A stretch of 64,000 nucleotides of DNA from a virus: UHGV virus genome UHGV-0286546; one strand, 5' to 3'. This document shows positions 1,604 to 59,836 of this stretch, in pieces. Made by a program: the position numbers and the translations under genes. Under the pieces are notes generated by a model. It was not told the origin of the DNA. It made no database searches and saw only the letters and a list, made by a program, of their open reading frames with translations. The first letter of the stretch is position 1, and every line of letters begins with the position of its first letter.

Positions 1604-1723
1604 GAGAGGGTAGCTCAGTCTGGTAGAGCAACGTAAAAAAGTATTTAGTATTTAAGTACGTTCAGCAACATATATTTTTGGTTGGTAACCCGTGTGTCGT
1701 AGGTTCAAATCCTACCCCTCTCA
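1604..1723 (+). ncRNA. tRNA-like RNA with intact acceptor/D/T arms but ~45-nt expansion of the anticodon region (intron-containing tRNA, pseudo-tRNA or Y-RNA-like)
   Basis: GAGAGGG..CCCTCTC acceptor pairing, D arm GCTCAGTCTGGTAGAGC, T arm GTAGGTTCAAATCCTAC; between them ACGTA-21nt-TACGT stem plus ~35 extra nt; no encoded CCA. Confidence 0.5.
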
Positions 1724-2021: not shown

Positions 2022-2113
2022 GCTCCGTCGTAGTCTTGGTGACCACTAGTTGAATGTCTATAGCTCCAGTCAATTAGTATGGGAATACTGTTCGAATCAG
2101 TTACGGGGTACCA
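2022..2113 (+). ncRNA. second tRNA-like element (acceptor GCTCCGT/ACGGGGT, canonical T arm TACTG-TTCGAAT-CAGTT, encoded CCA) with nonstandard ~40-nt anticodon/variable region
   Basis: 7-bp acceptor pairing incl. two G-U, D-like GTC-TTGGT-GAC, T-loop TTCGAAT, discriminator A + CCA at 2111-2113; core cannot be folded into a standard anticodon arm by eye. Confidence 0.4.
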
Positions 2114-2355
2114 ATTTTTATGAGTAGTTTATTAGTTCTTCTCGCCTTGGAAAATTGAACTAGTGAATAGTCATCTTGTAATGGTAAACATTCTTGACTG
2201 AAACTAAAGAAAAGTTTATATGTTTATTAGAGTAATATGGTAAGCCGCGGCTGAGACTTATAAGGGTAAGTAGATATATAGATGTAATGAAAGTTTTACC
2301 ACAGTATAAAGATTAGTAATATGAAGAAAGAATTAAATGACGCGAGGATAAAATA

Positions 2356-2562: not shown

Positions 2563-2650
2563 GGAGGAATGGCAGAGTGGCTTAATGCAGCGGTTTACTA
2601 AACCGTCGTACCGAAAGGTGCCGTGGGTTCAAATCCTACTTCCTCCGCCA
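2563..2650 (+). tRNA. tRNA-Ser (class II, long variable arm, G73), anticodon reads ACU as hand-folded
   Basis: Acceptor GGAGGAA/TTCCTCC, discriminator G, encoded CCA, long variable arm CGTACCGAAAGGTGCCG, T arm GGGTTCAAATCC; anticodon loop TTACTAA. Confidence 0.8.
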
Positions 2651-2657
2651 ATTTATT

Positions 2658-2751
2658 AGGTCTGTCGTTCAATGGTTAGGACACTAGGCTTATACCCTAG
2701 CGAGCGTCTGATTAACGCGAAATCCCAGTTCGAGTCTGGGCGGACCTACCA
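2658..2751 (+). tRNA. class II tRNA (long 23-nt variable arm, A73) with anticodon loop CTTATAC = anticodon UAU as hand-folded (Leu-like body, Ile AUA anticodon)
   Basis: Acceptor AGGTCTG/CGGACCT, D stem GTTC/GGAC, anticodon stem CTAGG/CCTAG, T arm CCCAG-TTCGAGT-CTGGG, A + CCA. Confidence 0.7.
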
Positions 2752-3013: not shown

Positions 3014-3046
3014 TGTTTATAGATTAACAGAAAAAAGGAAGTGGAT

Positions 3047-4531
3047 ATGTCTGATAATAAAACAATGACTGAAAAAGGTGCTATTACTAATCAATCTACA
3101 TTAGACAAAGTTGTAGATTGGTTTTATCATGGAGCCGCATTACGTAGAGAAAAAAACAAAGACCGTATTATAGCTTTGTTTGATGATGCTTTTAAACAGG
3201 ATAAAACCAAAGCATTGCGTATTTTATTTTATATTCGTGATATTCGTGGTGGTCAAGGTGAAAGACGCATTTTTAGAATTTGCTTAAATCATTTGGCAAA
3301 AATAGAATCTGCTTGGTTAAAAGACAATTTGGCATTAATTGCTGAATACGGCAGATATGATGATTATTTGTGCTTGCTTGATACAGAAATTAAAAGTGCT
3401 GTAATTGATTTCGTTAAAGCACAATTAGATAAAGATATTGCTGCAATAGATAGCAATACACCTATTTCATTGCTTGCCAAATGGATGCCTTCCGTTACAA
3501 CCAAGAATAAAGAAAAAAGAAGATATTTAAATGCTCTTTTGAATTCTGGTAAATTTGGCACAGTAAAAAATTATAGACAAACGTTATCTAAACTTCGTGA
3601 TAAATTAAATATTGTTGAAAAGAATCTTTGCAATAAAGCCTTTGCTGAAATTGAATATTCTAAAGTTTCTTCTAATGCAATGTCTAAGTATTCAAAAACT
3701 AGAATTTCATCTGGATTAGCTGGTACTTTTTGGCGCAATGACTTAGATAGATTTAAAATGTATTTAGACGCTGTTAAAAACGGTAAAACAATCGACGGCA
3801 AAGAAGTAAAAATAAATGCAAAAACCTTATATCCATATGATGTTATTACAAAATATATGAGTGGTTATAGTATAAGTCATCAAGAAGATCCTGCAGCGGA
3901 AGCTCAATGGAATGCTTTACCTGATTATGTACCAGAGATTAACGGCATTGTAATTTATGATACTTCGGGTTCAATGTATGGATTACCTATGGCTGTATCT
4001 TTGTCGTTGGCTATTTATATTGCTGAAAGAAATAAATCAGAAGTTTGGCGTAATTATGTTATTCCATTCTCATCTAATGCGACTTGGAAAAAAGTAAAGG
4101 GTAACAATTTAGTAGAAAAAATTGAATCTATTTATACTGGAGATTGTTCAAATACTAATTTACAAGCAGCCTTTGATCTTATTTTAGGTAAAGCTATATA
4201 TGCGCAAGTACCTAAAGAAGATATGCCAAAACAGCTGATTATTATTAGTGATATGGAATTTGATTCGGTTTCTTCTAATAACCAAACTAATTATGAAGCT
4301 ATAAAAAGCAAATATAAGAAAGCTGGTTATGACTTACCACAATTAATCTGGTGGAACGTTGAATCAAGAAGCAATCAAACACCGATTACAGTAAATGATA
4401 AAAATTGTTTATTGCTTTCTGGCTGTTCACCGGTAGTTATGCAAGTAGCTTTGGGTGGTTCATACGATTTTATGGAAGCAATCGATAAAATTATTAACCA
4501 AGAACGTTATAGTTGCATCAATTATAATTAG
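3047..4531 (+). CDS. vWA-domain protein with N-terminal alpha-helical domain; Ro60/TROVE-like (DUF2828-type) architecture
   Basis: MIDAS motif DTSGSM ~residue 300 followed by second acidic motif ISDMEFD; N-terminal ~300 aa helical with FYIRDIRGGQGERRIF segment; 494 aa like Rsr/Ro60; ATG 3047 6 nt after SD aaggaag (GTG at 3041 also possible). Confidence 0.8.
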   Translation: MSDNKTMTEKGAITNQSTLDKVVDWFYHGAALRREKNKDRIIALFDDAFKQDKTKALRILFYIRDIRGGQGERRIFRICLNHLAKIESAWLKDNLALIAEYGRYDDYLCLLDTEIKSAVIDFVKAQLDKDIAAIDSNTPISLLAKWMPSVTTKNKEKRRYLNALLNSGKFGTVKNYRQTLSKLRDKLNIVEKNLCNKAFAEIEYSKVSSNAMSKYSKTRISSGLAGTFWRNDLDRFKMYLDAVKNGKTIDGKEVKINAKTLYPYDVITKYMSGYSISHQEDPAAEAQWNALPDYVPEINGIVIYDTSGSMYGLPMAVSLSLAIYIAERNKSEVWRNYVIPFSSNATWKKVKGNNLVEKIESIYTGDCSNTNLQAAFDLILGKAIYAQVPKEDMPKQLIIISDMEFDSVSSNNQTNYEAIKSKYKKAGYDLPQLIWWNVESRSNQTPITVNDKNCLLLSGCSPVVMQVALGGSYDFMEAIDKIINQERYSCINYN

Positions 4532-4650
4532 TTCTTAATAACTATTAAAGACTGTGAAAAACGTACAGCAATCTATAAAATATTTTATATTGAAGACTTG
4601 CTGTGTTTTAACAGCATGATAAGGTATTAATTTCGGTTAATACCTGTTTA

Positions 4651-4716
4651 TAAGGAAGGGCCGAAACAAAAGTTTTTCGTTAAAAGACAGTCTTTACGGT
4701 CCTTCCTTTTTTTTAT
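4651..4716 (+). terminator. rho-independent terminator (branched hairpin + T8)
   Basis: aaggaagggccg...cggtccttcc followed by tttttttt; two further hairpins at 4556-4650. Confidence 0.6.
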
Positions 4717-6042: not shown

Positions 6043-6600
6043 TTGTTGAGTTATAACAGATTAAAAAATTTTAGAAAATTACGAAAACTAGCTATATTAC
6101 AAGGATTTGGCGGAAAATGTCAATGTTGTGGTTATAACAAATGCGTTCAAGCTTTAGAATTTCATCATTTAAATTGTAATGATAAAGAATTTTCTATTAG
6201 TACCATTATGAATAAAAACTGGAACGAAATAAAAAATGAATTAAAAAAATGTATTTGTGTGTGTGCCAATTGTCATAGAGAAATACACAATAATTTATTA
6301 GAAATTGATGTTAATAAACAATATTTTGACGAAAACGCCGTACAAGATTATGAATGTGCTATAAATAAGGTAACAAAATATAGCAAATGTCCAATTTGCG
6401 GAGCATTAAAACCAGAATATAACAAATTTTGTTCTCGAAAATGTGCCGCGAAATCAAGAGATAGAGTAAATTGGGAACAATACGAAAGTTTAGTTTATAT
6501 TATTGATAATAAAATTGAATCTATTAATAGTATTGCTTCTAAATTAAATATTTCTTGGCAAGCTGTAAAGAAAAGATATAAAAAATTAAAATCGCAATAA
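6043..6600 (+). CDS. HNH homing endonuclease
   Basis: HNH motif EFHHL...CANCHREIH with flanking CxxC pairs; TTG start after SD tagggag; inserted between tRNA genes. Confidence 0.8.
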   Translation: MLSYNRLKNFRKLRKLAILQGFGGKCQCCGYNKCVQALEFHHLNCNDKEFSISTIMNKNWNEIKNELKKCICVCANCHREIHNNLLEIDVNKQYFDENAVQDYECAINKVTKYSKCPICGALKPEYNKFCSRKCAAKSRDRVNWEQYESLVYIIDNKIESINSIASKLNISWQAVKKRYKKLKSQ

Positions 6601-59215: not shown

Positions 59216-59836
59216 ATGAACAAACTAGTTAAAATAAAAGTAGACGGAATGATTTTTGATTCTTTAGTAAAAGCTGCGAAGTTTATTAAATGTAATGCTT
59301 ATTCGATTAGTAATAAGTTTACATCTGCTAAAAGCAATAAAATTGAATTTAAAGGTCATTCTGTTGAAAAAATCGAAGCAAATGATTTGATGATTAAATC
59401 GAATCGTGGTAGAAAAAGAGTTAAAGTAAAATGTGTTACTACCGGTGAAATTTTCAATTCTATTTCAGATGCAGCTAAAGCACTTGGTATCAACGCATGG
59501 ACTTTTGGTCTTAAAATGGAAACGAACGGTAAGTATGTTGATGCTCAAGGCAAAGAATATGTTCGTGAAACACCGATTAATAGAAGTAGTAATACTGAAT
59601 ATAAAAAGACTAAAAACGACACGATTATATCTAAGCCACGTCATGAAATGATTAAAGATACAATTATTGAAACTGTAGAAAATCTCGATGTAGAAAAAAC
59701 AGTTGAAAAAATGGTTGCATCAAAAACCGAAGAAATTCGTGATCTTGAAAAAGTTGCTACTAAATTGGCGGCAAAGAGCAAGTACAGTGAAGCAGCTATG
59801 ATTTATGAATTGCTGAATACTCTCACTACAAAATAA
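59216..59836 (+). CDS. DNA-binding protein with two NUMOD1-like HTH motifs
   Basis: IFDSLVKAAKFI and IFNSISDAAKALGIN repeats; similar to 27894..28523. Confidence 0.55.
   Translation: MNKLVKIKVDGMIFDSLVKAAKFIKCNAYSISNKFTSAKSNKIEFKGHSVEKIEANDLMIKSNRGRKRVKVKCVTTGEIFNSISDAAKALGINAWTFGLKMETNGKYVDAQGKEYVRETPINRSSNTEYKKTKNDTIISKPRHEMIKDTIIETVENLDVEKTVEKMVASKTEEIRDLEKVATKLAAKSKYSEAAMIYELLNTLTTK

Follow-up and report, generated by a model that had tools for sequence, protein, structure and literature searches.

A 120-nucleotide (nt) gene on the plus strand of virus genome UHGV-0286546 (positions 1604–1723 of the 64,000-nt stretch analyzed here, hereafter the window) has the outline of a transfer RNA (tRNA) and carries a surplus of nucleotides between its D and T arms. 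This raises the questions of (i) where in the tRNA body the extra nucleotides lie; (ii) whether they recur in other phages; and (iii) whether the gene is best understood as an interrupted tRNA, as a dead tRNA gene, or as an RNA with another role, such as that of the Y RNAs bound by Ro60 proteins. We determined that a conserved module, a covarying hairpin followed by the motif ACAGCAA, splits the anticodon arm of this and many other phage tRNA-shaped genes, that it is encoded on the same strand as, and close to, a gene for a protein with a predicted Ro60-like fold, and that it also lies beside this protein outside tRNA genes. The RNA is probably a Y-RNA-like partner of that protein.

The acceptor stem (GAGAGGG, 1604–1610, paired with CCCTCTC, 1716–1722, and followed by the discriminator A1723), the D arm (1613–1629, GCTC-AGTCTGGTA-GAGC) and the T arm (1699–1715, GTAGG-TTCAAAT-CCTAC), all identified with a custom cloverleaf scan, are canonical, as a sequence-only reading of the window had already noted. 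That reading placed 68 nt between the D and T arms; the interval is indeed expanded, and an exact count gives 69 nt (1630–1698), compared with 23 nt in a class I tRNA. The element is called neither by ARAGORN at its default settings nor by Rfam RF00005, whether at the gathering threshold or at E ≤ 10 over positions 1500–1850. No CCA is encoded, the 3' flank being A-ACA, whereas the window tRNAs recovered by our own cloverleaf scanner all have NCCA; for all 12 window tRNAs, the end coordinates given by ARAGORN lie 3 nt beyond those given by Rfam. The minimum-free-energy fold of the element has −32.8 kcal/mol (z = −3.6), and none of 200 shuffled sequences is equally stable. A promoter and terminator scan was uninformative, the surroundings being AT-rich. 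The carrier phage, whose capsid protein resembles T4 gp23, is a myovirus of the bacterial type. The 64-kb window is probably part of a genome of some 240 kb or more, contigs of relatives being 234–254 kb long.

When every block deletion between the D and T arms was enumerated and scored, removal of the 46 nt at 1634–1679 was the unique best solution (score 9.0), and the segment is supported by family alignments A2 and A3 and by a match to the covariance model described below. The deletion joins ACG (1631–1633, anticodon-stem positions 27–29), which ends the 5' segment (1604–1633, with nucleotide 26 at 1630), to GG (1680–1681, positions 30–31), which begins the 3' segment (1680–1723). The result is a stem of five base pairs, ACGGG/CCCGU (3' strand 1689–1693), closed by the loop UUGGUAA (1682–1688) with U33, A37 and the anticodon GGU (1684–1686), and followed by a variable loop of normal length (5 nt, GUGUC). 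In the RNA, the order is therefore GAGAGGG-UA-GCUC-AGUCUGGUA-GAGC-A-ACG, the 46-nt insert, and GG-UUGGUAA-CCCGU-GUGUC-GUAGG-UUCAAAU-CCUAC-CCCUCUC-A. With the insert deleted, ARAGORN calls tRNA-Thr(ggt), and the canonical tRNA features are present: a 7-bp acceptor stem, a D arm with GG, a TTCRANY T arm, U33 and R37. Since deletion of 1634–1679 restores a perfect arm, the anticodon arm is split between positions 29 and 30, and is neither replaced nor expanded. The insertion of about 45 nt proposed from the letters alone thus stands, at 46 nt, while the proposal that it replaces or expands the anticodon arm does not.

Other assignments of the intact gene were less satisfactory. ARAGORN with its intron search, a check that the earlier reading had recommended, does call an intron-bearing tRNA, but one of poor quality: a tRNA-Lys(ttt) with a 39-nt intron and with G·G and U·U pairs in the anticodon stem. 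We rejected this call because the 29/30 solution is perfect and is common to relatives. A class II variable arm was discounted here as it was in the earlier reading, the extra 46 nt being located 5' of the anticodon loop and not between positions 44 and 48. Nor is the element a transfer-messenger RNA: ARAGORN -m returned none, and Rfam gave only an 18-nt match to the T arm at 5.5 bits.

The insert itself is organized, from 5' to 3', as a linker UAAAAAA, a hairpin (1641–1659), GUU, the near-invariant single-stranded motif CAGCAAC (1663–1669, defined by the invariant columns of alignments A2 and A3) and a second linker, AUAUAUUUUU. The hairpin pairs GUAUUUA (1641–1647) with UAAGUAC (1653–1659) around the loop GUAUU. 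It is this helix that is conserved in the family; the ACGTA (1631–1635)/TACGT (1657–1661) stem enclosing 21 nt, which the earlier reading had singled out, does occur in the minimum-free-energy fold but is not the conserved one.

To say how widely the arrangement is found, we rely on pattern scans of viral contigs. A first scan, for a D arm and a T loop 50–80 nt apart, returned 31 loci, several of them with inserts like that of the window. A second, to which the shared word CAGCAA was added, returned at least 120 loci, among which the requirement for a closed acceptor stem retained at least 62 distinct tRNA-shaped genes of 108–128 nt. Homologous inserts of 40–57 nt are thereby found in dozens of tRNA-shaped viral genes, and the occurrence of the same layout and a homologous insert in dozens of phage contigs is far beyond chance. 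The inserts share a common plan: an A-rich 5' linker, a hairpin whose upper stem and loop are conserved (e.g., AUCUUGUUAAGAU), 1–4 nt, ACAGCAA and a linker of 8–15 nt. As the earlier reading had suggested, we examined covariation in related phages, and the 7-bp hairpin is strongly supported: in 34 relatives, 87% of the cells are paired, whereas shuffles reach 59% and slid partners about 40%, and 72 cells show double changes, compared with 23. In the motif, C-N-G-C-A is invariant in 34 diverse sequences and the family consensus is ACAGCAA, with the variants ACGGCAU, ACCGCAU and CUGCAAU in cultured phages. The junction sequences, on the other hand, are not conserved across the family. Two further structural elements were tried and rejected. 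If the two linkers of the insert paired with each other, they would form a closing helix, but such pairing (mean 3.8 bp) is no better than in shuffles (3.65 bp). A pseudoknot between the hairpin loop and ACAGCAA, examined by eye, was dropped because the variants ACGGCA, ACCGCA and CUGCAA occur without compensating changes in the loop.

We built R1, a covariance model of the module with 38 positions, which, being short, misses divergent modules. In the window it has one good match (1634–1672, 29.2 bits); in other phages there are 2–4 copies each, within tRNA bodies of differing identity. The family is absent from Rfam 15, and the literature searched, which comprised full texts with few subscription-journal papers, held no account of it or of the function of DUF2828, the Pfam family of the neighboring protein. 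A blastn search with positions 1300–2100 against cultured phages gave no match at E ≤ 1e-5, while the 120-nt query at E ≤ 1 recovered relatives there. An exact 26-mer scan had a sole match, in a contig (L003) with a different, longer insert, and a pattern scan of genome contigs returned chiefly chance matches and four true members, two of which adjoin the protein gene. Taken as a whole, this is a large RNA family in phages that had previously gone unannotated.

Among the matches listed, one deletion yields five Watson–Crick pairs together with U33 and R37 in 44 of the 62 genes, and in 40 of these 44 the junction lies at 28/29 or 29/30. ARAGORN calls a tRNA in 61 of the 62 once the insert is excised and in none of them before. 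The restored anticodons of these matches are those of Thr, Lys, Asn, Ile, Val, Arg, Gly, Gln, Pro, Met and Phe, and in some relatives the Ser anticodon GCU, borne by a class I body. Such a body lacks the long variable arm that bacterial SerRS normally needs. The class I GCU subfamily is abundant (L042, L079, L087, L090, L094, L114, L129, L131 and L145); its contigs derive mostly from sample 3300045988, and a human-faecal phage record, MT837596, is 97% identical. In IMG/VR, no allele of this subfamily without the insert was found.

The second line of evidence concerns the neighborhood of these genes. At 3041–4531 of the window, 1.3 kb downstream of the interrupted tRNA and on the same strand, lies a gene for a 496-amino-acid protein, the putative partner of the RNA, that matches Pfam DUF2828 and DUF7788/vWA as well as PHROG 850 ('RNA-binding protein'). 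An AlphaFold2 model computed from 63 homologues (pLDDT 91, pTM 0.90) was compared with the PDB by Foldseek, and the only full-length matches were Xenopus Ro60 (1yvr, E = 4e-9), Deinococcus Rsr (2nvo) and a TROVE domain (9kop), each over about 540–570 aligned columns with TM scores of 0.31–0.52; the remaining matches were vWA/MIDAS domains. Residues D307, S309, S311, T372 and D404 are invariant among the homologues, which fits our reading of a MIDAS pattern. The predicted structure thus has a Ro60-like fold, and the modeled protein shows the Ro60/TROVE architecture of a HEAT-repeat ring and a C-terminal vWA domain with a MIDAS site. At the level of sequence, this relationship is not visible: Pfam gives DUF2828 and DUF7788 and no TROVE match, and phmmer found no Ro60 among PDB sequences. 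Some GenBank records do name homologues 'Ro-like RNA binding protein'. DUF2828 occurs in 709 cultured-phage records, including Felixounavirus and Listeria, staphylococcal, mycobacterial, Vibrio and Campylobacter phages.

When the window protein was used as a tblastn query, a homologue was found in about 50 of 157 loci, nearly all of which had been gathered by RNA patterns; in the loci checked, it is encoded on the same strand as the interrupted tRNA and usually less than 1 kb from it. In Synechococcus phage BUCT-ZZ01, for example, two interrupted tRNAs directly follow the gene for a homologue of 32% identity. A first search for loci by protein yielded two distant ones, neither with a clear interrupted tRNA; R1 had a single weak match in L001, outside any tRNA body. 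In the reciprocal test, 80 viral loci were picked by the protein alone and searched with R1 at E ≤ 1. This produced 100 matches in 47 of the 80 loci (1–5 per locus), all 100 on the strand of the protein gene and none inside it, at a median distance of 428 nt, with 81% within 1 kb. As many as 86 of the 100 matches lie inside tRNA bodies of normal order, and the tRNA cores of the members are intact, with 7-bp acceptor stems and T loops. No other gene family is comparably associated with the module: a search of the 80 loci for a conserved neighboring nuclease or ligase turned up DUF2828 in 80 of 80 and, in second place, an HNH-nuclease-like family in 13 of 80.

Furthermore, the module is not confined to tRNA genes. 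Just downstream of a 'Ro-like RNA binding protein' gene in Mycobacterium phage Jobypre (PV251868, L161 5404–5786) lies an unannotated YrlA-like RNA whose parts follow the order T arm, capped acceptor stem-loop, D arm, which is the permuted order of YrlA. Three ACAGCAA motifs flank this RNA, two of them with a hairpin ahead, and its tRNA-like core matches the Rfam YrlA model RF02553 with 39.3 bits (E = 2.6e-7), which falls short of the gathering score of 69. The Jobypre RNA ends in a terminator-like stem and U-run. In Listeria phage vB_LmoM_AG20 (JQ797329, L162 4600–4900), three ACAGCAAU motifs, or (C)UAACAGCAAUUAC, are located just ahead of the DUF2828 gene. On the 5' side of each motif is a strand (GGAAUC, AGAGAGC or GGAAGC) that has its complement downstream, with UGU/GUA after the complement; inspection by eye suggests that these modules are circularly permuted relative to the tRNA-embedded form. 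Finally, in five loci (L194, L210, L215, L238 and L212, at about 3880–3930), a copy of the module lies about 80–120 nt upstream of the DUF2828 start codon, in the messenger RNA (mRNA) leader, with a second ACAGCAA about 45 nt further upstream. The leader copies suggest autoregulation by the Ro-like protein. Neither the YrlA-like nor the leader context needs splicing, and both fit a protein-binding element.

Motifs of this kind also follow the Ro-like gene of the window, past its stop codon (4545–4715, plus strand): UACAGCAAU (4562–4570) and UAACAGCAUG (about 4609–4618) are each able to pair with an upstream (G)CUGU, and a long GC-rich, terminator-like stem with a U-run is found near 4640–4710. 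The first of these motifs scores only 13.7 bits with R1. They may be further binding sites or a Y-like RNA.

Taking these results together, we consider it probable, at roughly 0.55, that the RNA in the window is a Y-RNA-like partner of the phage Ro-like protein, built into a tRNA of normal topology; its binding and function we infer from genomic linkage. Of the options listed in the sequence-only reading, a Y-RNA-like regulatory RNA is therefore the one best supported, given a conserved module that is coupled to a Ro60-like gene and also occurs near that gene in a YrlA-like RNA and in mRNA leaders. The hairpin–ACAGCAA module would be the recognition element for the Ro60-like protein (DUF2828 plus vWA), RNA and protein would form a Y-RNA-type ribonucleoprotein, and the tRNA body would be the counterpart of the tRNA-like effector domain of YrlA, nearly intact and of normal topology rather than a permuted mimic. 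The tRNA part might tether the protein to factors that handle tRNAs, such as those of repair and processing or the anticodon nucleases of the host. Alternatively, it might gate the protein, as Y RNAs do for Ro60, or act as a decoy for anticodon nucleases or protect against them. With the insert in place, the RNA would be unable to decode on the ribosome, and we argue that decoding is not the conserved function, because (i) in some phages, the interrupted tRNA has a normal counterpart of the same anticodon; (ii) the GCU anticodon occurs on a class I body; and (iii) about 40% of the protein-selected members do not have a cleanly restorable class I arm, in a comparison that modeled class I arms.

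The closest known system is that of the YrlA-type Y RNAs bound by Ro60/Rsr (Rfam RF02553; Chen et al. 2014, PMC4201824; Wang et al. 2018, doi 10.1101/312249). Both RNAs have a D arm, a T arm and an acceptor stem; both are encoded, often in several copies, on the same strand as a Ro-type protein gene and within a few kb of it (about 4 kb for YrlA; the window RNA falls well within that span); and in both, the protein-binding part, or in the phage its presumed equivalent, joins the L shape at its anticodon-stem end. The Jobypre relative links the two, combining an RF02553 match with the same ACAGCAA modules. The differences are nevertheless substantial. The putative partner is DUF2828/DUF7788 and not Pfam TROVE; the window RNA has the normal tRNA order, free acceptor ends and a complete, restorable anticodon stem-loop, in contrast to the permuted YrlA with its capped acceptor and no free CCA end; and the presumed binding element is a hairpin with ACAGCAA and not the YrlA Ro-binding motif GNCGAAN0-1G (PMC4201824). 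The permuted form is found within this system only in the mycobacteriophage relative. By analogy, then, the system may work like Ro60–YrlA, yet it departs from it in topology, in the GNCGAA motif and in the RF02553 match.

Several observations weigh against a Y-RNA-like role. No R1 match was found in 33 of the 80 protein-selected loci, and Felixounavirus has the protein but no R1 match near its gene, so that, at the sensitivity of R1, the pairing is not universal; this suggests that an RNA partner in the Felix O1-like phages, should there be one, differs or has diverged too far for R1. (In Escherichia typing phage 1, a Felixounavirus (NC_041979, L160), the DUF2828 'RNA-binding protein' gene heads an array of 24 tRNAs.) The window RNA does not match RF02553 at E ≤ 10, has no CGAA anywhere in 1604–1723 and hence lacks the GNCGAA motif (PMC4201824), and the contact between protein and RNA is deduced from genomic linkage alone. 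Perfect anticodon arms are restored in 44 of 62 genes among the matches listed and in 19 of 51 in the protein-selected set, compared with 0.3% in the shuffled null, and U33, R37 and sensible anticodons are kept, which a pure scaffold does not obviously need.

It is this last point that keeps alive the short-intron option of the earlier reading, as selection for a spliced, decoding tRNA would yield such restorable arms. An endonuclease would cut out the 46-nt insert at 29/30 and a host or phage RNA ligase would seal the ends to give tRNA-Thr(GGU), with the Ro60-like protein perhaps acting, by analogy with maturases, as an intron-binding cofactor or chaperone; we regard both the splicing and this role for the protein as possible but doubtful. 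The perfect arm obtained from the window by excision and the ARAGORN calls in its excised relatives (among the matches listed) speak in its favor, as do the preference for junctions at 28/29 or 29/30, the many ordinary isoacceptors, Glu among them, that the interrupted tRNAs span, and the lack of a second tRNA-Thr among the ARAGORN calls in the 64-kb window. A nick at this position would lie in a duplex, a substrate suited to nick-sealing ligases, and in Listeria phage AG20 the protein gene is followed, about 4 kb downstream, by a gene annotated as a putative RNA ligase. No splicing apparatus was identified in the neighborhoods and ORFs covered. Across the 80 loci, no endonuclease or ligase is conserved beside the module, and Pfam and PHROGs scans of 30 window open reading frames (ORFs) found no RtcB, Rnl, Pnkp or EndA; moreover, no catalytic activity is known for Ro-family proteins. 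There is no bulge-helix-bulge (BHB) motif, no closing helix that would bring the junctions together and no conservation of the junction sequences, and the insert is too short for a group I or group II intron and has no ribozyme family match (Rfam, E ≤ 10). The same module resides in a YrlA-like RNA and in mRNA leaders, some of the interrupted tRNAs are redundant or non-canonical, and a search of IMG/VR for an insert-free allele of the commonest family, an abundant gut-phage family, found none. In its widest form, this option would make the inserts the first tRNA introns among bacterial viruses that do not splice themselves and depend on a protein, excision and religation being assisted by a Ro60-like protein that recognizes the hairpin–ACAGCAA module; we regard this, too, as possible but doubtful.

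Archaeal BHB introns, which are cut by EndA and joined by RtcB, also place an insert of tens of nucleotides inside the anticodon stem, their removal likewise restores a normal tRNA, and different tRNAs of one genome carry related inserts; position 29/30 is among the non-canonical tRNA intron sites of archaea. Unlike these introns, the insert described here shows no BHB at its junctions, resides in a bacterial-type myovirus with no splicing endonuclease among the ORFs scanned, and contains a conserved hairpin and motif that belong to the insert itself and are coupled to a Ro-like protein. A BHB intron was accordingly rejected: the window fits neither of the two geometries tried, and in the family the fits were 0 of 40 and 2 of 40, compared with 11% and 7% of shuffled sequences. 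Group I introns, too, interrupt the anticodon region of bacterial-type tRNAs and are missed by standard finders, but these introns exceed 200 nt, contain helices P1–P9 and lie in the anticodon loop, whereas the insert has 46 nt, lies in the stem and has no Rfam intron or ribozyme match at E ≤ 10; the earlier judgment that it is too short for a group I intron was correct.

A variant in which the module is removed but the tRNA is not religated appears unlikely. Here, a host RNase would remove or nick the module, leaving a two-piece tRNA held together by its stems, or functional tRNA halves, and the Ro-like protein would handle the fragments. Such a process has a parallel in bacterial 23S rRNA intervening sequences, extra stem-loops inside a helix of a stable RNA that are removed by RNase III without religation to give a functional fragmented molecule. 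The insertion point is inside a helix, so the halves would stay paired; in Mycobacterium smegmatis, RNase P cuts YrlA in vivo within the acceptor-like stem, after which CCA is added (PMC4201824), and two further papers tie Ro/Rsr systems to RNA repair and tRNA fragments (PMC7790460; PMC7824862). However, the insert has a hairpin of only 7 bp and no supported closing helix, where RNase III would prefer a long continuous duplex, and, in further contrast to the intervening sequences, it contains a conserved single-stranded motif and is coupled to a protein gene. We found no evidence of cleavage sites, and the modules outside tRNA genes count against this explanation just as they do against an intron.

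The remaining option, a dead tRNA gene that received a small selfish or random insertion and whose linkage to DUF2828 is an accident of tRNA clusters, we consider very improbable. The gene does lack an encoded CCA, in which it differs from the other tRNAs of the window (a difference that the earlier reading reported correctly), and its GenBank relatives are labeled 'tRNA-OTHER' with a pseudogene flag or are unannotated. Nonetheless, phages that are very distant from one another keep the motif unchanged and show covariation in the hairpin, the R1 matches share the strand and the immediate vicinity of the protein gene (100 of 100, at the median distance given above), each phage has 1–5 copies in tRNAs of differing identity, and the tRNA cores, with their 7-bp acceptor stems and T loops, are intact. 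On the basis of this family-wide conservation and covariation, we rejected the pseudogene that had been among the original options.

The family also has members in cultured phages, including Erwinia phage pEa_SNUABM_50, Vibrio phage 6E35.1a and its relatives, Synechococcus phage BUCT-ZZ01 and Burkholderia phage FLC9. In GenBank, the interrupted genes of these carriers are labeled as a 116-nt 'tRNA-Phe(aaa)', a 122-nt tRNA-Lys or 'tRNA-OTHER' (pseudogene flag), or have no label at all. The first of these labels belongs to pEa_SNUABM_50 (MT939488, L154 4349–4464), where removal of the module from the 116-nt gene gives a tRNA-Glu(UUC); the same phage also encodes a normal tRNA-Glu(ttc). Interrupted tRNAs that duplicate a normal tRNA of the same anticodon in the same phage are thus known for Glu-UUC in the Erwinia phage and for Asn-GUU in Vibrio. 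A second, unannotated interrupted tRNA is seen in pEa_SNUABM_50 at around 4790–4930 of L154.

Other unusual tRNA-shaped features were observed in the window and in related contigs. At 2022–2113 (plus strand) lies a second tRNA-shaped sequence that neither ARAGORN nor Rfam calls, with an acceptor stem GCTCCGT/ACGGGGT, a D arm TAGT-CTTGGTGACC-ACTA, a T arm TACTG-TTCGAAT-CAGTT and an encoded ACCA; its 'anticodon' stem GTTGA/TCAAT surrounds a 16-nt loop and is followed by an 11-nt variable region. It has no ACAGCAA module, and its fold has a z-score of about 0. The tRNA-Ile(UAU) at 2658–2751 (plus strand, 94 nt) has a long class II-like variable arm (GCGAGCGTCTGATTAACGCGAAAT), unusual for a tRNA-Ile, which is kept in a related contig (L159 6885–6975) beside a DUF2828 region, and the tRNA-Ser at 2563–2650 (plus strand) has the anticodon ACU, with an unmodified-looking A34, which is rare in bacteria. 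The L003 contig mentioned above (2050–2350, minus strand) and the group L007/L009/L015–L034 share a tRNA 5' half (…GGTAGAGCAACGTA) that is followed by a longer, different insert starting A(U)A-A-AUGUCUU; in L003, the insert leads to a Shine–Dalgarno sequence and an ATG, with a DUF2828 homologue nearby. These genes may represent another class of interrupted tRNA (e.g., a group I intron with an ORF) or may be truncated. Further expansions without the ACAGCAA module, in which a long hairpin replaces the anticodon loop or GC-rich extra arms are present, were seen in L004, L005/L010/L033, L014 and L018. Two window ORFs look like homing endonucleases: a free-standing HNH endonuclease ORF between tRNA genes (6043–6600, plus strand) and an I-TevI/NUMOD1-type ORF (59216–59836, plus strand).

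Public records mislabel members of this family, as over-long tRNAs with a wrong anticodon, as 'tRNA-OTHER' pseudogenes or not at all, and the tRNA counts of many phages are underestimated whichever explanation holds. Were the inserts introns, maturation of phage tRNAs would be gated by a phage ribonucleoprotein step, Ro-family proteins would have a role in tRNA splicing, and the inserts would constitute a tRNA intron class new outside Archaea and Eukarya. If, as we think probable, the interrupted tRNAs are instead Y-RNA-like partners of the Ro-like protein, DUF2828, whose function had so far been unassigned, gains a concrete candidate RNA partner and a candidate binding motif, and the Ro/Y-RNA principle would be widened from permuted tRNA mimics to near-intact tRNAs. 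This would bear directly on the purpose of the tRNA-like domain in bacterial Y RNAs. Under either explanation, a link between phage tRNA arrays, RNA repair and the anticodon-nuclease defences of the host can be approached by experiment in cultured phages.

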